64,000 nucleotides of DNA from an uncultured Gammaproteobacteria bacterium (lineage in GTDB: Bacteria > Patescibacteriota > Patescibacteriia > Patescibacteriales > GWC2-42-12): NCBI GenBank assembly GCA_964431805.1, contig CAYSKV010000001.1:61698-125697 (forward strand), read 5' to 3'. A program made the translations under genes and the position numbers. Position 1 is the stretch's first letter; each line of letters starts with the position of its first letter. The notes under the pieces were generated by a model. That model was not told where the DNA came from, made no database searches, and worked only from the letters and a program-made list of their open reading frames with translations. Below, in pieces: positions 2,255 through 47,612 of the stretch.

Positions 2255-2962
2255 ATGCCGTATCTAAAATTTATATCCGACAAAAATTTAATTTCTGCCG
2301 TTGGAAAAGTAGTCAAAATAATAGAAATGACGGAACGTGAGGCGAGTAGTAATCTTCATAAAAATGTTATTGATCCTTTTTCAGCCTTGTTCCATGGCGT
2401 CACTCATTCAATAGCATACAAAGAATGGATAAAACAAGAAAAGGCCAGACAATCACAAAAAACAATGCAAAATGCCATAGGTGATTTTCATCAAGAAATA
2501 TTAGGTGCAATCCCTGGTTGGAAAAATCTCGGAGTTGGTGGAGGGTTGGATGTTGCAAACGATAAAATGAAAATTATTGCAGAAATAAAAAATAAATTTA
2601 ATACAACAAAAGGAAATCATAAGGTTGAAATATATAATGCCATAGAGTCAAAACTTAAATCAGAAAAATTTAATGGTTTTATTGGATATTATGTAGAAAT
2701 AATACCTCAGGCAAAAAGCATATACAACAAACCCTTTACCCCATCGGACAATAAGACCCACAAGAGAAAACCGAGCAAAAAAAATATCAGAGTAATTGAT
2801 GGTATAAGTTTTTATACTCTTGCAACCGGACGAAAATATGCCCTACAGGAACTATTTGAAGCGTTATCTCATATTTTAGTAGATGAATACAAATTTAAAT
2901 TAAGCAAAGAAGAAGCTAAAAAATATTTTGAATTATTTAAATTAGCCTTTTTAACTAAATAA
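2255..2962 (+). CDS. Putative type II restriction endonuclease (PD-(D/E)XK-like)
   Basis: 235-aa ORF directly upstream of a C5-methyltransferase. Candidate catalytic motif GLDV..(10 aa)..AEIKNK. Size and the NVIDPFSA region recall Eco47II-type enzymes from memory only (unverified). Confidence 0.55.
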   Translation: MPYLKFISDKNLISAVGKVVKIIEMTEREASSNLHKNVIDPFSALFHGVTHSIAYKEWIKQEKARQSQKTMQNAIGDFHQEILGAIPGWKNLGVGGGLDVANDKMKIIAEIKNKFNTTKGNHKVEIYNAIESKLKSEKFNGFIGYYVEIIPQAKSIYNKPFTPSDNKTHKRKPSKKNIRVIDGISFYTLATGRKYALQELFEALSHILVDEYKFKLSKEEAKKYFELFKLAFLTK

Positions 2963-2980
2963 CCATTGCCTAGGCAATGG
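2963..2980 (+). terminator. Perfect palindrome CCATTGCC-TA-GGCAATGG followed by TTATTT, between the R and M genes
   Basis: 8-bp GC-containing stem immediately after the stop codon, with a U-rich tail. Confidence 0.5.
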
Positions 2981-2985
2981 TTATT

Positions 2986-2994
2986 TGATATAAT
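2986..2994 (+). promoter_or_regulatory. Extended -10 promoter TGATATAAT for the methyltransferase gene
   Basis: TGnTATAAT match 29 nt upstream of ATG 3023. The same TGnTATAAT form recurs at other gene starts in this window. Confidence 0.5.
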
Positions 2995-2997
2995 TAT

Positions 2998-3016
2998 GAT
3001 AGATTATTAATCTATC
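2998..3016. promoter_or_regulatory. 19-bp perfect palindrome GATAGATTA-T-TAATCTATC (candidate operator)
   Basis: 9+1+9 perfect dyad lying between the -10 box and the start codon of the HTH-methyltransferase. Confidence 0.5.
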
Positions 3017-3022
3017 TTTTTT

Positions 3023-4276
3023 ATGAAAAAAAATCAATTTATAACCGCTGGAGAAGCCGCCCGTCGATTAGGTATTTCAATTGATACTATTAGAAGGTGG
3101 GACAAAAAAGGACTAATTAAATCTTTTAGAGATGAAAAAAACGATCGCATATTTAGTTTAGAAGAAATAAAAAGAATACAAAACAAAACTTACGGAGACA
3201 AAAAAAGTAAGTTTAAAATTTTAAAGAATAATAGAATGTCAAACTACACAGCGATCGAATTATTCGCTGGTGCGGGGGGCACTGCTTTAGGGATGGAAAA
3301 TGCAGGTATTGAGCATGTACTATTGAATGAGTATGACAAATATGCCTGCGAAACACTTCGGATTAATAAACCAAATTGGAATGTTGTCGAAAAAGATATA
3401 AGAGAACTAAAATTTTTTAATGGGCAAGCCGACATTGTTCAAGGAGGTTTTCCCTGCCAAACTTTTTCGCAAGCTGGTCGAAAAATGGGTTTTGAGGATA
3501 TACGAGGTACATTGTTTTTTGAGTTTGCGAGATGTGTTAAAGAAGTTAAGCCTAAAATTGCAATTGGAGAAAATGTCAAAGGATTGCTCAACCATGACAA
3601 TGGTAGAACAATTAAGACGATGGTGTCTGTTTTAGAAGAAATTGGATATCGAGTTAAATATAAAATTTTACGATCACAATATTTGGATGTTCCGCAAAAA
3701 AGAGAACGTCTTATAATTATTGGGGTTAGAAAAGATTTAAATATTCCTATTTCATTTCCAAAAGAAAAAGATTATATTATTCCTCTGCGCGAAGCATTCA
3801 GCAAATGTCCAAAATCTGAAGGCCAAAAATATCCAGAAAAAAAGAAAAAAATATTAGAATTAATTCCTCCTGGCGGATATTGGAGAGATCTTCCGGAAAA
3901 TCTTCAAAAAGAATACATGGGGGCAAGTTATTTCATGGGTGGCGGCAAAACTGGTATGGCAAGAAGATTGTCGTGGGACGAACCGTCTTTAACCTTGACT
4001 TGTAGCCCGGCTCAAAAACAAACTGAACGTTGTCATCCAAATGAAACACGTCCTTTGTCAGTGCGCGAATATGCACGAATTCAAACATTTCCAGATAGTT
4101 GGAAATTTTCAGGATCCGTTTCGCAGCAGTATAAACAAATAGGTAATGCTGTACCGGTAAACCTTGGATATCACATTGGCGACATGATAATTAAAATGCT
4201 TAACGGTGAAATTGAAGAAGAAAAAGATGAGGCGCTTATGTTTATTCAGCAAAAATTATTTGCTTTTGCTACGTAA
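3023..4276 (+). CDS. dcm: DNA (cytosine-5)-methyltransferase with N-terminal MerR/excisionase-type HTH domain
   Basis: C5-MTase motifs: I ELFAGAGG, IV GGFPCQTFS, VI GENVKGL, VIII QKRERLIIIG, X GNAVPV. The first ~70 aa carry ITAGEAARRLGISIDTIRRWDKKGLI, in the same frame with no intervening stop. Confidence 0.9.
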   Translation: MKKNQFITAGEAARRLGISIDTIRRWDKKGLIKSFRDEKNDRIFSLEEIKRIQNKTYGDKKSKFKILKNNRMSNYTAIELFAGAGGTALGMENAGIEHVLLNEYDKYACETLRINKPNWNVVEKDIRELKFFNGQADIVQGGFPCQTFSQAGRKMGFEDIRGTLFFEFARCVKEVKPKIAIGENVKGLLNHDNGRTIKTMVSVLEEIGYRVKYKILRSQYLDVPQKRERLIIIGVRKDLNIPISFPKEKDYIIPLREAFSKCPKSEGQKYPEKKKKILELIPPGGYWRDLPENLQKEYMGASYFMGGGKTGMARRLSWDEPSLTLTCSPAQKQTERCHPNETRPLSVREYARIQTFPDSWKFSGSVSQQYKQIGNAVPVNLGYHIGDMIIKMLNGEIEEEKDEALMFIQQKLFAFAT

Positions 4277-5615: not shown

Positions 5616-5645
5616 TTGAAAAAAACTCATAAGTTGTGTTATAAT
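5616..5645 (+). promoter_or_regulatory. Promoter TTGAAA-18 nt-TATAAT with TG extension
   Basis: TTGAAA 5616-5621, TGTTATAAT 5637-5645, upstream of the S8 protease gene. Confidence 0.55.
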
Positions 5646-5658
5646 AAAGATGTTATTT

Positions 5659-5759
5659 ACCCCGTTAAATAGCATCTTTATTCATAAATGGGGTAAGTTT
5701 TGCATTTGTATTTTTTTGTAAATTATTTATGATAAATTTTTTGTTTAGATTTAACGGGG
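5659..5759 (+). promoter_or_regulatory. Leader hairpin: ACCCCGTTAAAT (5659-5670) pairs with ATTTAACGGGG (5749-5759), enclosing the start codon at 5729
   Basis: 11-bp perfect complementarity. The 5' arm sits 13 nt after the -10 box. The same motif pair occurs at 55245-55345 and 59572-59629. Confidence 0.55.
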
Positions 5760-8056: not shown

Positions 8057-8198
8057 CCTTTAAAAACTTTTTTAGAAAAAGTTTTTAATATTTTCAAAAA
8101 ATATAAAGTATCAAATAAAAATTTTATAGCGAGTAAAACTCTACGGCCATAAAATTTTAATTCGATAAATAATAAACTAATAAAATATTTATAATTAT
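8057..8198 (+). repeat. Two-hairpin intergenic module, copy A
   Basis: Hairpin 1: TTAAAAACTTTTT-TAG-AAAAAGTTTTTAA (8060-8088). Hairpin 2: 8109-8167 with loop AGCGAGTAAAACTCTACGGCC. Fills the whole spacer between stop and next start. Confidence 0.9.
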
Positions 8199-9212
8199 AT
8201 GAGCAAAAGAGCAATTTTTGACAAAAAAAATGTTTTAGTAATCGGCGGCGCTGGTTTCGTCGGTTCGCATTTATGCGACCGGCTAATTGAAAATAGCAAA
8301 GTAATTTGCCTTGATAATTTTTCAACCGGCGACGAAAGAAATATTGATCATTTACTTTCTGATCCTAATTTTGAGTTTATAAAACATGATATGGTTGAGC
8401 CGATTAATTTAGAAGCCTTGCCGGAATTGCAAAAATTTAAAATAGAATTTCAGGGTATCCAAGAAATTTATAATTTAGCTTGCCCGACCTCGCCGAAAGA
8501 TTTTGAAAAAAATAAAATCGCAACGGTTTTAGCTTCTTCTTATGCCGTAAAAAATGCTTTGGATTTAGCGGTTCGTTACCAGGCAAAAATTATGCATTTT
8601 TCTTCTTCGGTAGTTTACGGCCCAAGATTAGACGGCCAAACAAAAATTAAGGAAAGCGAAATTGGTAAAGTTGATTTTCTTTCTGAGAGAAGTTGCTACG
8701 ACGAAGGCAAAAGATTTTCCGAAACTATGGTAGAAAATTATCGCCGCGTTTATAATCTTGACGCGAAAGTGGCTCGCTTATTTAGAATTTATGGACCGAG
8801 GCTAAAACTAAACGAAGGCAATTTAATTCCTGATTTTATAAATAGCGCTTTGGAAAATTCTGATTTAACTATTCTTGGCGACGAAAATTTTTCTAGTTCG
8901 CTTTGTTATGTCAGCGATTGTGTTGATGCTTGTTTAAAATTAATGGAAAGTTCAGCAAATGGGCCGTTTAATATTGGATCTGATGTTGATATGAATTTAA
9001 CAAAAATTTGCGAGATGATTATTAAAATTTTAGATTCAAAATCGGCTATAACATATGCGGACAAACATTTATTTATTAGTGAATTATGTTTGCCTGACAT
9101 AACTAGAGCTAAGGAAGAGCTGGGTTGGATGCCGATTGTTACTTTGGAAAATGGTTTGAAAAAGACAATTGATGATTTACGAGCGAGCAAAGGTTTAAAA
9201 ACGGTAGTATAG
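8199..9212 (+). CDS. UDP-glucuronate decarboxylase-like NAD-dependent epimerase/dehydratase
   Basis: Rossmann motif VIGGAGFVGSHLCDRL, LACPTSP, and the catalytic YDEGKR block typical of UXS-type SDR enzymes. Confidence 0.8.
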   Translation: MSKRAIFDKKNVLVIGGAGFVGSHLCDRLIENSKVICLDNFSTGDERNIDHLLSDPNFEFIKHDMVEPINLEALPELQKFKIEFQGIQEIYNLACPTSPKDFEKNKIATVLASSYAVKNALDLAVRYQAKIMHFSSSVVYGPRLDGQTKIKESEIGKVDFLSERSCYDEGKRFSETMVENYRRVYNLDAKVARLFRIYGPRLKLNEGNLIPDFINSALENSDLTILGDENFSSSLCYVSDCVDACLKLMESSANGPFNIGSDVDMNLTKICEMIIKILDSKSAITYADKHLFISELCLPDITRAKEELGWMPIVTLENGLKKTIDDLRASKGLKTVV

Positions 9213-9338
9213 CCTTTAAAAACCTTTTTAAAAAAGGTTTTTAATATTTTCCAAAATATAAGGTATCAAATAAAAATTTTAAAGCGAGCGAAGCTCTACG
9301 GCCATAAATTTTTTTATTTGATTATTATAAGTTAATTT
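9213..9338 (+). repeat. Two-hairpin intergenic module, copy B
   Basis: Hairpin 1: TAAAAACCTTTTT-AAA-AAAAAGGTTTTTA (an extra C:G pair). Hairpin 2: ~9263-9323 with loop AGCGAGCGAAGCTCTACGGCC. Confidence 0.9.
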
Positions 9339-10351: not shown

Positions 10352-10485
10352 ACCTTTAAAAACTTTTTTAGAAAAAGTTTTCCCCTAAAGGGATAAATAA
10401 TATTTTCAAAAATATAAGGTATTAAGTAAAAATTTCATAGCGAGCAAAGCTCTACGGCTATAAAATTTTTACTTAATTATGATAA
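10352..10485 (+). repeat. Two-hairpin intergenic module, copy C (with extra CCCT-AA-AGGG mini-hairpin)
   Basis: Hairpin 1 as in copy A. Hairpin 2 at ~10419-10478 has an altered but still complementary stem (TTAAGTAAAAATTT / AAATTTTTACTTAA) and loop AGCGAGCAAAGCTCTACGGCT. Confidence 0.9.
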
Positions 10486-12819: not shown

Positions 12820-14725
12820 ACATATAAATTTGCCCATTATCAATCGCTTGCCAGCTATCGGCAGAAAATTTAGCTTCATCTAATATTTTAATAAACGCCC
12901 ACCAGTATTTATTTAAAACAAAATAACCAACATCTACGCCAGCCAAATCCATGGCCGCAAACATTGTTTCGCGGCTTGGTTTTTTATATACCATATCTAA
13001 ATAATATTGATAAAGCGGCGAGCTGGTAGGGATTGGGTAATAAAAAATTTGCTCGGCGCCGTAATATTTTTTAAAACCGAATTGGCTTAAAGCCGCGGCG
13101 CTAACTTGCTGATTAGCTAAAACAATATAATCCTTTTTAGCGTCTTTATTAATAAAGTCAACGGTTTTAATATCTGAATTTGAAACTGCGTAACCGCGGG
13201 TATTAAAATAATTGTCATAGCGCGGATAAGTTATGTATAAAGCAGAGGTAATTAATAAAGATAAAAATACAATAGAACTTATAATAATAAAATTATTTTT
13301 CTTAGCTATTTTTTCAAATAAGGCATAAATTAAAATTATAAAAAAAGGCAAAAGGAATAAACAGGCAATTAATAAAATTCTTTGCGGATAATCATCTCTT
13401 TCGTAGTTTATTAAAAAAGAAAATGGCAATTTAATAGTAATTAAATATGAAATAAATAAAGCAGATGCGACCCAGAAATAAAGCCATAAAATTTTACATT
13501 GTTCGCGGTGTTTCCAGGCGATAAAAATTCCACCTAAGGCGAGTAAAGCAATAATAATTTTTAGATTAAAGCCGTATAAATAAACAAAATTTAAGATAAA
13601 ATTTTCTTGCCCCGGGATATTAAATTGCAACAGGCTTATATCTTGCGGTAAATTGCTGCTTGAGTTGGTTGGCGCTATTTGCCTATTTAAAAAATAAAAT
13701 AAAATCGGCAAAACAAAAATAGTAATAATAGTTAAAAGGGGATAAAAATATTTTTTTATTTTAATTTTATCGCTGTGATAAACCGCTAAAAATGCGCTAA
13801 ACAGCAAAGCTGGGATACCTGCGATCGGCTGGGTTATGGCCGCGGCTAATGATAAAAGCAAGATAGTTAAAAAATCGTAGAAATTTTTGCAACATAAGCC
13901 TAATAAAATCGCCAAAATTAAAAAAAGATAAGCTAAATTTTGCGGCGTGGTAACGATTAAAAAGGAGAAACCTAAAGTCAATAAAGCTAAAATTAATATT
14001 AAGTTAAGACTTGCTGAATTAAACCAAGATTTTAAAATGCGCCATAAAGTAAGCGGTAAAAATAAAGCGGCTAAAACTGGTAGTAAAAATTTATCAAGCG
14101 AAACTATTGGTACAGCAGTTATTTTATGAAAAATCACTACCAAGGCGTATTGCCCTAAATAATAAAGCGGCTTAGGATCAACCGCGCCAGTTTTATCAAT
14201 TAAATCTTCCGTGGCTTGATGAATAAATGAATCATAACCGTAGCCGAGTTTATAAACTATTAGCGCGACCGAAAAAGACAAAAAATAATAAAGCATTACG
14301 AGCGGCAAAGCGAATTTTTTGTTAATTATAGAGTTACCGATTAAAATTATAGTTGTTAGGCAGTAAAGAATAAAAAAGTATTTCGGTACGACTTGCCAAG
14401 GAGAAATTATGGCGTTAACGGTTTGGTGGTTAAATAAAACGTAAAAGCAACTAAGTAAAAGTGCAAAACCTAAAACAAAAAGCGCAAAATTTATTAATCT
14501 AAATTTATCATTTTTAGGCTGCTCGGTTTTGGCGTATCTTGAAATTTTGCTTGCTAAAAGACTAAAATATTGTATAATAACAAAAGAAATAACCGCTAAA
14601 ATTAAGCTAATTATTACGCCTAAATTGTTAAGCGAATAGAAACGATAAACCAAGCCGCCCCAGATCGAAATCAGGCAGATTAATATTAAGAGTGAATTAA
14701 CGATATTCAATAGTTTATTATTCAT
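12800..14725 (-). CDS. Polytopic membrane protein of unknown function with C-terminal soluble domain
   Basis: 641-aa ORF with more than 12 hydrophobic segments. Embedded in a glycan locus; its stop overlaps the convergent GT1 gene by 20 nt. Confidence 0.75.
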   Translation of the reverse strand: MNNKLLNIVNSLLILICLISIWGGLVYRFYSLNNLGVIISLILAVISFVIIQYFSLLASKISRYAKTEQPKNDKFRLINFALFVLGFALLLSCFYVLFNHQTVNAIISPWQVVPKYFFILYCLTTIILIGNSIINKKFALPLVMLYYFLSFSVALIVYKLGYGYDSFIHQATEDLIDKTGAVDPKPLYYLGQYALVVIFHKITAVPIVSLDKFLLPVLAALFLPLTLWRILKSWFNSASLNLILILALLTLGFSFLIVTTPQNLAYLFLILAILLGLCCKNFYDFLTILLLSLAAAITQPIAGIPALLFSAFLAVYHSDKIKIKKYFYPLLTIITIFVLPILFYFLNRQIAPTNSSSNLPQDISLLQFNIPGQENFILNFVYLYGFNLKIIIALLALGGIFIAWKHREQCKILWLYFWVASALFISYLITIKLPFSFLINYERDDYPQRILLIACLFLLPFFIILIYALFEKIAKKNNFIIISSIVFLSLLITSALYITYPRYDNYFNTRGYAVSNSDIKTVDFINKDAKKDYIVLANQQVSAAALSQFGFKKYYGAEQIFYYPIPTSSPLYQYYLDMVYKKPSRETMFAAMDLAGVDVGYFVLNKYWWAFIKILDEAKFSADSWQAIDNGQIYMFKYERK

Positions 14726-19317: not shown

Positions 19318-22056
19318 ATGTCTTCAAATAAATTCCAAAATTTAAAAGTTAATTCGGACGTAAAATCGTCTCGTTTTGTTATAGATTTAAAGAAAGATTT
19401 AGAGCAAAATAACAACATTAAAGAAGTAAAAAAACGAAGTATAGAAACAAGGGTAGAGGAGAGGCTCGAGAAAATAGCTGAAATTGATTACAAAGGAGCT
19501 TTAAAAAAGGGGAAAGATAAAAGTGGGGCTTATTTTTCTAGTATAAAGAAAACCTTAAAATCAGAAATTTTTTCATTGCCAAAAATCTCTCTCAACGTTA
19601 AAAAAGATCATGAAAAAAAGAGTAAACTTTCCGCATCGCCAGTCGCGCATAGCAATAGTTATTTAATTTTCTTATCAAATCAACTAACGCTTATTGGTTT
19701 AGGAAAATTATTATATATTGTTTTAAAAAAAGTCTTTATTCTATTTTATAAAATTTGTTACGCGGCTGGTTGGGTAATAATGTTTATTTTAAGATTAGTT
19801 TACTTTTTTGTTTTAGCTATAATTAAACCGATTATTAAAATCGTAAAACCTTTATTTTTTAAATCCCAAGTCGCTCTTTCCGGAACTTTACATGCTTTAC
19901 CAACCGGCTACCATTTAACGCAATCCGTTACTTTAGCCGCATCTGCAAAATTATTACATGGATTTAAAACGCGAGCAAAAGAAAAAAGAGAGAATACCGA
20001 ATCATTCAGAACAGAACCGATATATAACACTAAGTTTGCTTTATTAAAGCCAGTTTTAGTCTTCGCCGGCATATTATTAATTATAATTTTACCGGTTAAA
20101 GCGTTTACTTATTATAAAGTTATTGATGATGCTAAGGGTAAAGTTTTAGGCGCTAGCGAAAGCGCTATAGATGATTTAATTTCTGCAGGACAATCGGCGT
20201 TAGGTTTAAATTTTAATCAAGCCGGGCAAGGCTTTGAAAACGCCAGCAATAATTTTTTAAACGCGCAAAATGAACTCGAAAAAATTAATGGTTTAATATT
20301 TTCTATAGCTTCAATTTTACCTGACAAAAATATGCAGCTAGCCGCCGCCAGTAAAAATATTTTGCGCGCCGGCGAAGCGAGCGCTAATGCGGGTAAAAAT
20401 TTAAGCTTAGCCATGGAAAGTATTTTTAGTTATAAAGAAAATAGCACTAATAGTATTTTAGAAAATTTAAGTTTACATGGACATAACGCCATAAATAATT
20501 TAACTGAGTTAGACGAGGCATTAAATCAAATAGATAGCGAAGTCATTCCGGAAGATTACCAAAACCAATTTATTTTATTAAAACAAAAAACCGGCGAACT
20601 TAAACGCGGCTTAGCGGAATTTATTAACTTAACTGATAGCTTGGGCGATTTTTTAGGCGCCAGCATGGATAAGCGTTATTTATTAGTCTTCCAAAATAAT
20701 TCTGAACTGCGCGCTTCGGGCGGCTTTATCGGCAGTTTTGCTTTAATAGATTTTTCTAAAGGCGAGATTAAAAATATAGAAGTGCCGGGCGGCGGCAGTT
20801 ATGATACCGAAGCGGGTTTCTTAAAAAAAATAAAAGCGCCAGAACCTTTAGGATTAGTTAGAGCTGATTGGCATTTCTGGGACGCTAACTGGTGGCCTGA
20901 TTGGCCGACTTCGGCGTCTAAATTGGCTTGGTTTTATGAAAATTCCGACGGCTCAACGGTTGATGGCGTGATTAGCTTTACACCTACAGTAATTGAAAAT
21001 TTATTAAAAATAATTGGCCCGATAGATTTAAAAGATAAATATGGTTTAGTTATTGATGCAGATAATTTTTGGCTAGAAACGCAAAAATTAGCCGAGCAAA
21101 AACCAGACATAACTAAAGAGCCTAAAAAGATAATCGGCGATTTAATGAATAAAATTATTGAGGAGTTGCCTAAACGATTAAATAAAGATAATCTAGTGCC
21201 TTTATTTAAAACGATTGAAAAATCGTTAGCTAGTAAAAACATTTTATTTTATTTTACGGACGAAAGCTTAGAGGCTAAAGTTGATGATTTAGGTTGGAGC
21301 GGTAGAATCAAAAACACAACCGGTGATTATTTAAATGTGATTAATTCTAATATTGCTGGCGGTAAGAGCGATCGAAAAGTTAAACAACAAATTATTCATC
21401 AAGCCGAGGTTCAGCTGGATGGCTCAATTATAGATAATTTAATTATTAGACGCGCTCATGAAGCAGTAAATCGCGAGCTATTTTCTGGCGTTAGAAACGT
21501 TGATTGGTTAAGAATTTATGTGCCGCTCGGATCCGAGTTACTAGAAGTTAGCGGTTTTAAACCGGTAGATAAAATATTTTTTGATAAAGAAATCGCTGGC
21601 CTAACCGACGACCCGGAAGTTTTAGCTAGCGAAGGCCAGGCGCAAACCGACGAATCGAGCGGTACAAAAATTTACAACGAGTTTAATAAAACCGTTTTTG
21701 CTAATTGGTCGCAACTAGACCCAGGAGAAACTATTGAAATTAAAATAAAATATAAATTACCTTTTAAATTAACCGATAAAAAACAACCAGCCAGTCAAGA
21801 ATTTGCAAATCAGTTACTTGAAAAATTTGGTTCAATTTTAAATCCAAGGGAGAAAAATTTATATTCATATTCTTTGCTAGTGCAAAAACAACCAGGCATG
21901 AATTCGTCGACTATAGAGAGCGAGCTAAGATTAGGCGATAACTTTAAATCAATCTGGAAATACCCGAATAATTTAAATTCTAATTTAAATGGCTGGTCAA
22001 TAACCGAAGATTTAAACCAAGACGAAATAATGGCTATAATGGCAGAGGAAAAATAA
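19318..22056 (+). CDS. DUF4012 domain-containing membrane protein
   Basis: FQNNSELRASGGFIGSFALIDFSKGEI core motif. N-terminal hydrophobic segments. Paralogue of the fragment at 2-487. Confidence 0.8.
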   Translation: MSSNKFQNLKVNSDVKSSRFVIDLKKDLEQNNNIKEVKKRSIETRVEERLEKIAEIDYKGALKKGKDKSGAYFSSIKKTLKSEIFSLPKISLNVKKDHEKKSKLSASPVAHSNSYLIFLSNQLTLIGLGKLLYIVLKKVFILFYKICYAAGWVIMFILRLVYFFVLAIIKPIIKIVKPLFFKSQVALSGTLHALPTGYHLTQSVTLAASAKLLHGFKTRAKEKRENTESFRTEPIYNTKFALLKPVLVFAGILLIIILPVKAFTYYKVIDDAKGKVLGASESAIDDLISAGQSALGLNFNQAGQGFENASNNFLNAQNELEKINGLIFSIASILPDKNMQLAAASKNILRAGEASANAGKNLSLAMESIFSYKENSTNSILENLSLHGHNAINNLTELDEALNQIDSEVIPEDYQNQFILLKQKTGELKRGLAEFINLTDSLGDFLGASMDKRYLLVFQNNSELRASGGFIGSFALIDFSKGEIKNIEVPGGGSYDTEAGFLKKIKAPEPLGLVRADWHFWDANWWPDWPTSASKLAWFYENSDGSTVDGVISFTPTVIENLLKIIGPIDLKDKYGLVIDADNFWLETQKLAEQKPDITKEPKKIIGDLMNKIIEELPKRLNKDNLVPLFKTIEKSLASKNILFYFTDESLEAKVDDLGWSGRIKNTTGDYLNVINSNIAGGKSDRKVKQQIIHQAEVQLDGSIIDNLIIRRAHEAVNRELFSGVRNVDWLRIYVPLGSELLEVSGFKPVDKIFFDKEIAGLTDDPEVLASEGQAQTDESSGTKIYNEFNKTVFANWSQLDPGETIEIKIKYKLPFKLTDKKQPASQEFANQLLEKFGSILNPREKNLYSYSLLVQKQPGMNSSTIESELRLGDNFKSIWKYPNNLNSNLNGWSITEDLNQDEIMAIMAEEK

Positions 22057-22203
22057 AGCCTTTGAAAACTTTTTCAAAAAAAGTTTTCAATACTTTCCCC
22101 GCCTAAGCGGGATAAACAAAAAATATAACGTATCAAATTAAAATTTAATGGCCGTAGAGTTCTACTCGCTATTAAATTTTAATTTGATTATAATAAATAT
22201 TAT
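22057..22203 (+). repeat. Two-hairpin intergenic module, copy D (loop of hairpin 2 inverted; extra CCCGC-CTAA-GCGGG mini-hairpin)
   Basis: Hairpin 1: TTGAAAACTTTTT / AAAAAGTTTTCAA. The hairpin 2 (22130-22189) loop ATGGCCGTAGAGTTCTACTCGCTAT is the exact reverse complement of the copy E loop. Confidence 0.9.
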
Positions 22204-31828: not shown

Positions 31829-31955
31829 AAAGCTTTAAAGACTTTTTCAAAAAAAGTTTTTAATATTTTCAAAAATATAACGTATCAATTTAAAATTTAA
31901 TAGCGAGTAGAACTCTACGGCCATTAAATTTTAAATTGATACAATAAAGATAATT
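31829..31955 (+). repeat. Two-hairpin intergenic module, copy E
   Basis: Hairpin 1: TTAAAGACTTTTT / AAAAAGTTTTTAA. Hairpin 2 (31882-31942) has a perfect 20-bp stem GTATCAATTTAAAATTTAAT and loop AGCGAGTAGAACTCTACGGCC. Confidence 0.9.
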
Positions 31956-47494: not shown

Positions 47495-47602
47495 TGTCAT
47501 TGCGAGGAGCGTCAGCGACGAAGCAATCTAACGGACAACAATTTTTTATCCAAACTTGCCATTAGTGAGATTGCTTCGCTCCCGCTGTTCGCTCGCAATG
47601 AC
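47495..47602. repeat. Inverted pair of GC-rich hairpin repeats
   Basis: 47495-47528 is GTCATTGCGAGGAGCGTCAGCGACGAAGCAATCT. The reverse complement of 47567-47602 is GTCATTGCGAGCGAACAGCGGGAGCGAAGCAATCT. A 38-nt spacer separates them. Confidence 0.85.
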
Positions 47603-47612
47603 AAATATAATT

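Follow-up and report, generated by a model that had tools for sequence, protein, structure and literature searches.

An inverted tip in one copy of a polar stem-loop repeat of Falkowbacteria-like Patescibacteria

'Minute inversions' in the hairpins of chloroplast non-coding DNA were reportedly described in 1996 by Kelchner and Wendel, and invertons or invertible promoters provide phase variation of the fimS type. Among intergenic repeats, Correia/NEMIS of Neisseria, BOX and RUP of Streptococcus, and ERIC are transcribed and modular, whereas the Rickettsia palindromic elements (RPE), said to have been presented by Ogata and colleagues in 2000, are palindromic repeats able to sit in frame in protein-coding genes.

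In hairpins, among them those of bacterial rRNA, template switching produces compensatory changes in one step as well as inversions of the loop, the documented loop inversions being mostly of 4 nt and the longest of 7-8 nt (PMC8794818), and it keeps short inverted repeats perfect in bacteria (PMC5941160). Here we analyse an intergenic module present in five copies, A to E, in a 64-kb stretch of DNA (the window, meaning the whole stretch analysed), in one of which, copy D, the tip of a long hairpin is inverted.

Copy D and its inverted tip

All five copies lie on the plus strand between plus-strand genes (Table 1), and no sixth copy was detected in the window with a covariance model derived from 88 canonical hairpins and scored on both strands. 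The module is made up of hairpin 1 (AAAAACTTTTTT-AG-AAAAAGTTTTT), AATATTTTC, the spacer AAAAATATAAnGTAT and hairpin 2, with a small GC hairpin in some copies. Copy D follows a DUF4012 gene (stop codon at 22054-22056) and precedes a TATAAT box and the start codon (22204) of a gene for a DUF11 surface protein.

Table 1. Copies of the module in the window and component parts of copy D.
Feature	Position	Strand	Sequence or context	Basis or comparison
Module copy A	8057..8168	+	canonical tip 8128-8148	alignment of copies, covariance model
Module copy B	9212..9324	+	canonical tip 9283-9303	alignment, covariance model
Module copy C	10353..10479	+	canonical tip 10439-10459; A-T instead of A.C mismatch	alignment, covariance model
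Module copy D	22058..22188	+		alignment with A-E and L123, L131 and L220; bounds from orthologous gaps in relatives
Module copy E	31832..31942	+	infA to rpmJ gap; canonical tip 31902-31922	covariance model
Hairpin 1 of D	22064..22088	+	GAAAACTTTTT-CAA-AAAAAGTTTTC	common orientation
Optional small GC hairpin of D	22098..22111	+	CCCGC-CTAA-GCGGG	subtype marker, also in L123 and L131
Conserved spacer of D	22118..22133	+	AAAAAATATAACGTAT (consensus AAAAATATAAnGTAT)	common orientation
Left arm, hairpin 2 of D	22132..22149	+	ATCAAATTAAAATTTAAT	
Inverted tip of D	22150..22170	+	GGCC-GTA-GAGT-TCT-ACTC-GCT	reverse complement of family tip AGC-GAGT-AGA-ACTC-TACG-GCC
Right arm, hairpin 2 of D	22171..22188	+	ATTAAATTTTAATTTGAT	18/18 complementary to left arm

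The structure of hairpin 2 was deduced from an alignment of 88 distinct canonical hairpins, drawn from the matches listed in the metagenome scan described below. An AT-rich stem of ~19 bp is followed upwards by an A.C mismatch, a G-C and a C-G pair and then a 4-bp mini-helix, GAGY/RCTC, which is capped by a purine triloop (AAA, AGA or GAA), with a 4-nt bulge, TACG, on the 3' side. The asymmetric features were near-invariant, as the A.C mismatch was present in 86/88 hairpins and the TACG bulge in 88/88. The mini-helix itself covaried (T-A vs. C-G in 36 vs. 50 copies, and also A-T vs. G-C). Across the 88 hairpins, 97.6% of the pair cells were paired and 17/25 pairs showed double-sided changes (211 cells), with shuffles and slid registers giving values far below. 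Against these doubly changed cells, 4 G.T and 11 A.C cells were counted on the sense strand inside the stem, and enrichment in G-U on the sense strand of the stems was absent from the 88 hairpins.

The 25-mer ATGGCCGTAGAGTTCTACTCGCTAT was found on the plus strand at 22148-22172 and on the minus strand at 31900-31924 without any mismatch and at 8126-8150 with a single one, the number of matches expected by chance being 0. The preliminary description had the loop of copy D as the exact reverse complement of that of copy E, with the rest of the module in the common orientation, and both statements were borne out: the match was 25/25 on opposite strands, and in the five-copy alignment hairpin 1, the spacer and both arms were collinear with the other copies. 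The identity between copy D and the reverse complement of copy E extended over 44 nt across the tip and the inner arms. The minimal inverted segment was 21 nt, and in its inverted state the bulge is moved to the 5' side and the triloop becomes TCT. The flip of the 'loop' was real but the loop was not an open one, since the inverted region is a structured, asymmetric tip. As also stated in that description, a flip of the tip and a flip of the whole hairpin are indistinguishable in copy D because its arms are perfectly complementary.

The covariance model gave 70-86 bits on the plus strand and 20-45 bits on the minus strand for copies A, B, C and E; for copy D the scores were 76.4 bits on the minus strand and 47.6 bits on the plus strand. 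On its sense strand, copy D cannot display the tip sequence that is usual in the family.

An assembly error is an improbable source of the flip. The palindrome could have been crossed in the wrong direction in a de Bruijn graph, given that the repeat has palindromic arms and that a Logan contig is broken inside it, although such a break is expected from the 44 bases shared by copy D and the reverse complement of copy E. The arms are of just 18-21 bp, and the final k-mers usually employed by assemblers are longer than this. Furthermore, the broken contig (L239, run SRR12447080) begins inside the tip and reads CGTAGAGTTCTACTCGCTAT followed by the right arm and the unique flank of the downstream gene, so that the flipped tip is linked to unique sequence. 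L239 is the same flipped junction as that of copy D, in a separate assembly from a sample that is possibly the window's own; therefore, the flip was present in the reads of SRR12447080 and was no quirk of the window's assembler. In addition, the second flipped locus described below was identical in two separately deposited assemblies (L126 and L178). We give next to no credence to a wrongly crossed palindrome.

The repeat family and its polarity

When metagenomes were scanned with a 23-nt degenerate pattern of the tip, at least 120 contigs were matched, with ~100 distinct AT-flanked copies carrying the same module among the matches listed; a profile with 14 specified bases, run over genome contigs, yielded 2 true matches (L018 and L101) among 118 loci returned. 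The homologues of the DUF11 protein encoded downstream of copy D carry Patescibacteria source names, which assign the window to this group, the most specific recurring label being Candidatus Falkowbacteria, and the module is an abundant repeat of Falkowbacteria-like Patescibacteria. Among the matches listed, all AT-rich copies were intergenic, with the hairpin at a median of ~10 nt upstream of the start codon.

The tip was conserved across lineages of 33% and 63% GC. Two contigs of 63% GC (L130 and L215) carried an identical tip, AGCGAGCAAAGCTCTACGGCC, on GC-rich stems in which the A.C mismatch and the bulge were retained. In L130, Uhrbacteria-like by its GyrA, a hairpin with the identical tip (13493-13605, minus strand) is followed 13 nt downstream by a tRNA-Gly gene, which argues that the element is not tied to translation starts. 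In the Uhrbacteria-like L215 (1093-2316), two identical GC-rich elements of ~160 nt, at ~1165-1322 and 2030-2187, lie in frame in fmt, the gene for methionyl-tRNA formyltransferase, whose product has ~55 additional residues after residue ~24 and ~53 between residues 267 and 272 when compared with Fmt of E. coli. In this double in-frame insertion the GC-rich variant resembles the Rickettsia palindromic elements, from which the family differs in its unrelated sequence and lineage and in the intergenic position of the AT-rich copies so close to start codons.

No match to Rfam 15 at the gathering score was obtained for the whole window, and when copy E was scanned by E-value the best matches were generic hairpins of plant and animal miRNA precursors, all far below their gathering scores. 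No description of the module was found in literature searches, and the repeat family is apparently undescribed. By inspection, the tip was a poor fit to a K-turn, a bulge-helix-bulge, boxA/boxB, an integron attC, an uptake signal or an anti-SD site, and a search for it in viral contigs gave no match.

The module is gained and lost at orthologous sites. The infA-rpmJ gap, filled in the window by copy E, is empty in L126, and at the gap orthologous to that of copy D the module was absent from relatives with 89% and 85% identity in the downstream protein, whereas a canonical module of another subtype was present in a relative at 79%. This presence and absence, together with the GC-rich form being twice in frame in fmt, indicates that the element behaves as mobile DNA. 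The empty orthologous gap of L241 was considered as a decayed flipped hairpin and rejected, as its fold was no better than those of shuffles (z -0.42). In the relative with a 96% identical downstream protein, the orthologous gap is occupied by another repeat, bounded by terminal inverted repeats GTCATTGCGAG.

The repeat that fills this last gap belongs to a second, unrelated family of ~80-140 nt with terminal inverted repeats TGTCATTGCGAG...CTCGCAATGACA, found also at 47495-47603 of the window, at L240:1355-1468 and at 14 other loci. In contrast to this second family and to class II MITEs, the module has no terminal inverted repeats, its ends (GCCTTTAAAAAC... and ...TTGAT) not being inverted repeats of each other, and no target site duplication was visible when filled and empty sites were compared.

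With Correia/NEMIS, BOX, RUP and ERIC the module shares its modularity, its intergenic position within operons, its long stable stem-loops and its presence or absence between relatives. It differs from them in the same lack of recognised terminal inverted repeats and target duplications, in a polarity that almost always follows the local genes, and in a 21-nt tip conserved at both extremes of GC content. The REP/BIME (REPIN) sequences are, like the module, high-copy intergenic imperfect palindromes in which asymmetric features make the hairpin polar, and the antisense strand of the tip has a GTAG adjoining a small hairpin, which recalls the GTAG tag as outlined for REP (PMC3733652). However, REP sequences are of 20-40 nt and the hairpin of the module is of ~60 nt; their GTAG or CGTC tag is at the 5' end, whereas the GTAG of the module is internal and restricted to the antisense strand of the tip; and REPINs are inverted pairs, whereas the module copies are single and co-oriented with genes. 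No RAYT or IS200-type TnpA was detected by phmmer in the window plus 0.86 Mb of module-bearing contigs, in what was a weak search, the queries being sequences of IS608 TnpA and of a RAYT from E. coli.

Several modules were located in ribosomal protein clusters, before putative rplF (L159, L161, L190, L226 and L228), before rpmJ (L167, L212 and copy E) and before putative rplX (L207 and L236), the gene names being assigned from the first codons except for rpmJ in the window. These modules occupied recurring junctions in different genomes and were always canonical, and such recurrence suggests either long retention or insertion hot spots.

As for the orientation of the tip, tabulation over copies and relatives, proposed in the preliminary description as a check, revealed a single polarity with few exceptions. 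Relative to the spacer, the tip was inverted in 2 of the ~100 distinct copies among the matches listed, these being copy D and L126:2631-2689. The flipped sequence of L126 is the same as that of L178, which comes from another deposit and is flipped as well. Copy D and L126 differ in tip/stem subtype and in locus, and thus represent independent flip events. A regular-expression search also returned apparent flips in L129, L147 and L206, which were the same canonical loci read on the other strand. At 11 hairpin loci, each seen in two or three contigs, there were 0 disagreements in orientation.

Relative to the flanking genes, the tip was sense wherever it could be called among the listed copies, with copy D as the sole clear exception; an antisense call on both sides was also made for L154, with weak evidence for its open frames. 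In L126:2446-2746 (= L178), the spacer and hairpin 1 run against alaS and infA, but the tip keeps the sense orientation. Two modules of L186, separated by 2 kb, run in opposite directions, one before a putative L31 (rpmE) gene and the other surrounded by minus-strand ORFs; both share the orientation of their respective neighbours, and thus polarity tracks transcription and not one replication direction. The loop of hairpin 1 was polar as well, TTTTTAGAAAAA being found 30 times and its reverse complement 0 times. In L181 (minus strand, ~7247 of the reverse complement) this loop reads TTTTTTGAAAAA, similar to the common TTTTCAAAAAA(A) form in reverse complement, and it may represent a loop flip in hairpin 1 too (1/~80 copies).

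Origin of the inversion in copy D

Hairpin 1, the GC mini-hairpin, the spacer and the arms of copy D were nearly identical to those of L123, L131 and L220, all of them with the tip in the canonical orientation; apart from the flip, they differed in one compensatory pair of the stem and in two bases of the hairpin-1 loop, and the tip variant of copy D was present in canonical orientation in L123 and L220. Therefore, copy D is a derived copy of a canonical subtype. The ancestral state at the locus itself would be the one suggested by these paralogous copies, the gap of the closest relative holding a different element.

The preliminary description had regarded hairpin 2 as an orientation-independent DNA unit, possibly inserted independently. 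If such a unit were mobile by itself and had been inserted backwards into a canonical module, the perfect arms would make the reversal of the whole hairpin look like a flip of the tip, and the family is indeed mobile, as judged by its presence or absence at orthologous sites. However, the orientation relative to the spacer was 98:2 among the copies listed and not ~50:50, and relative to the genes it was sense save in copy D and, weakly, in L154. Moreover, none of the ~100 AT-rich copies listed had a hairpin 2 that lacked the conserved spacer, and the arms of copy D match those of its near-identical canonical relatives at the same position of the module. Neither part of the proposal could be maintained, and a separate backward insertion is very improbable.

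The inversion in copy D is exact and length-preserving and has 18-bp perfect inverted repeats at its borders, and thus it points to an inversion between the arms. The breakpoints would be the two perfectly complementary arms of its own hairpin: during replication, the nascent strand would switch to the opposite arm as template, copy across the hairpin and return, leaving an inverted tip. The same outcome could come from recombination or gene conversion, whether between the arms or with another copy aligned in antiparallel. For an exact flip between near-perfect inverted repeats, a template switch within the quasi-palindrome, already one of the routes put forward in the preliminary description, was still the most economical mechanism. 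The strict Watson-Crick covariation of the stems, with few G.T or A.C intermediates, fits with one arm being copied from the other at the DNA level, and such a footprint of double-sided compensatory changes with almost no G-U intermediates would be an indirect, sequence-based sign of a replicative origin of the flip.

As in the chloroplast 'minute inversions', a segment between inverted repeats has been replaced in copy D by its reverse complement. The template-switch inversions of rRNA hairpins (PMC8794818) likewise consist of the exact reverse complement between inverted repeats with the length kept, and they are, as here, rare, recurrent and accompanied by one-step Watson-Crick compensatory changes in the stem. 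In contrast to those cases, which are mostly of 4 nt and never above 7-8 nt and affect a single-copy RNA gene, the inverted piece of copy D is of 21 nt, comprises a mini-helix plus a bulge and belongs to a multi-copy mobile repeat. This size and internal structure count against a template switch, and the sense tip within the inverted module of L126 hints at selection on flips instead of purely neutral mutation. With these reservations, we consider it probable that copy D is a member of a polar repeat whose 21-nt tip was inverted by a rare event between its own arms, a template switch being the likeliest, and that the inversion is fixed and derived and not a programmed switch.

Ectopic gene conversion, in which the tip of copy D would have been overwritten from another copy of the same genome, such as copy E, in an antiparallel register made possible by the palindromic arms, would account for the exact reverse complementarity of both tips, AGA triloop included, and for the 44-nt shared stretch. 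However, GAGT-AGA-ACTC is the second commonest tip variant (19 distinct copies among the matches listed) and is carried by L123 and L220, the closest relatives of copy D, so that no donor beyond its own ancestor is needed. The outcome would in any case be indistinguishable from that of a switch within the hairpin, and we regard the involvement of a second copy as unlikely.

The position of copy D before a gene for a putative surface protein recalls the invertons, in which a segment between inverted repeats is also found in inverted state upstream of such genes, and it might suggest a programmed or frequent reversible flipping with phase-variation-like control of the DUF11 gene; the sense tip in the inverted module of L126 could likewise mean that flips are selected. 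Against this, the invertible segment is of merely 21 nt and has no internal promoter, and no recombinase, transposase or invertase was detected by a Pfam scan of 30 proteins from positions 1-41 kb of the window (the remaining genes at 32-35 kb and those at 41-64 kb being outside the scan). Furthermore, just 2% of the listed copies were flipped, and no heterogeneity in orientation was seen between contigs either at copy D or at the 11 multiply sampled loci. Judging from these loci, from L126/L178 and from the junction of copy D in L239, the assembled contigs give no sign of ongoing switching, and a programmed switch appears extremely improbable. A single inversion between the arms is thus retained as the preferred origin.

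Possible role of the tip

Conservation of the A.C mismatch and the TACG bulge in nearly all the canonical hairpins, and also on the GC-rich stems of Uhrbacteria-like contigs, speaks in favour of the tip having a strand-specific role in the family, and together with the rarity of flips (~2% of the listed copies) it suggests that the tip is read strand-specifically. The flip had been taken as an argument against a loop-sequence-specific RNA function; this holds for copy D but does not extend to the family, where the asymmetric features are conserved even on GC-rich stems. As a result of the flip, the conserved tip sequence is antisense to the downstream gene, and if the tip acts strand-specifically, as the polarity of the family suggests, copy D would be a disabled or neutral copy.

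Any role of the tip is constrained by its conservation across the GC range, its sense polarity, and its location ~10 nt before start codons and, in one case, 13 nt before a tRNA gene. Tentatively, it may be a putative transcribed stem-loop, of the leader or intercistronic type, recognised by a lineage-conserved factor; the alternative would be recognition of the hairpin as single-stranded DNA by a candidate mobilising enzyme. No -35/-10 pair of the sigma-70 type was found in the module, where a simple scan gave background-level matches, and hairpin 1 plus AATATTTTC may be a candidate weak terminator. Promoters used in the lineage are TTGACA-17-TATAAT, found in its canonical form at L126:2524-2552 just upstream of the module, and TGnTATAAT, found at ~5630-5642 of the window.

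A bolder reading, which we hold to be quite unlikely, is that the tip is a cis element of at least two Patescibacteria lineages, Falkowbacteria-like and Uhrbacteria-like, read in sense as RNA or single-stranded DNA by a putative conserved factor, with template-switch flips acting as a heritable on/off toggle for each copy. If so, copy D would have been switched off upstream of a surface-protein gene, and in L126, whose module would have arrived the wrong way round, a flip would then have restored the sense tip.

By itself, the flip is an ordinary mutation of the textbook type, an inversion between inverted repeats, and of modest interest despite its unusually large size. Its value is rather that of a marker for a highly polar and apparently undescribed stem-loop repeat, the more interesting object, which is common in Falkowbacteria-like genomes and has an identical 21-nt tip in Uhrbacteria-like genomes of twice the GC content. 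The scarcity of G-U intermediates in its stems also makes the family a clean natural data set on the maintenance of hairpins by template switching in bacteria with tiny genomes.

Other features of the window were also recorded. The orientation of the genes turns from plus to minus at ~50.8-51.4 kb, and the minus-strand part (51-64 kb) is free of any of the five modules. At 2255-4276, a gene for an Eco47II-type restriction endonuclease precedes one for a C5 cytosine methyltransferase that has a MerR/HTH domain at its N terminus. Upstream of a subtilase gene, at 5630-5685, an extended -10-like box (TGTTATAAT) is followed by an unrelated 44-nt hairpin (AAAGATG...CATCTTT), which received a weak score of 25.6 bits with the covariance model.
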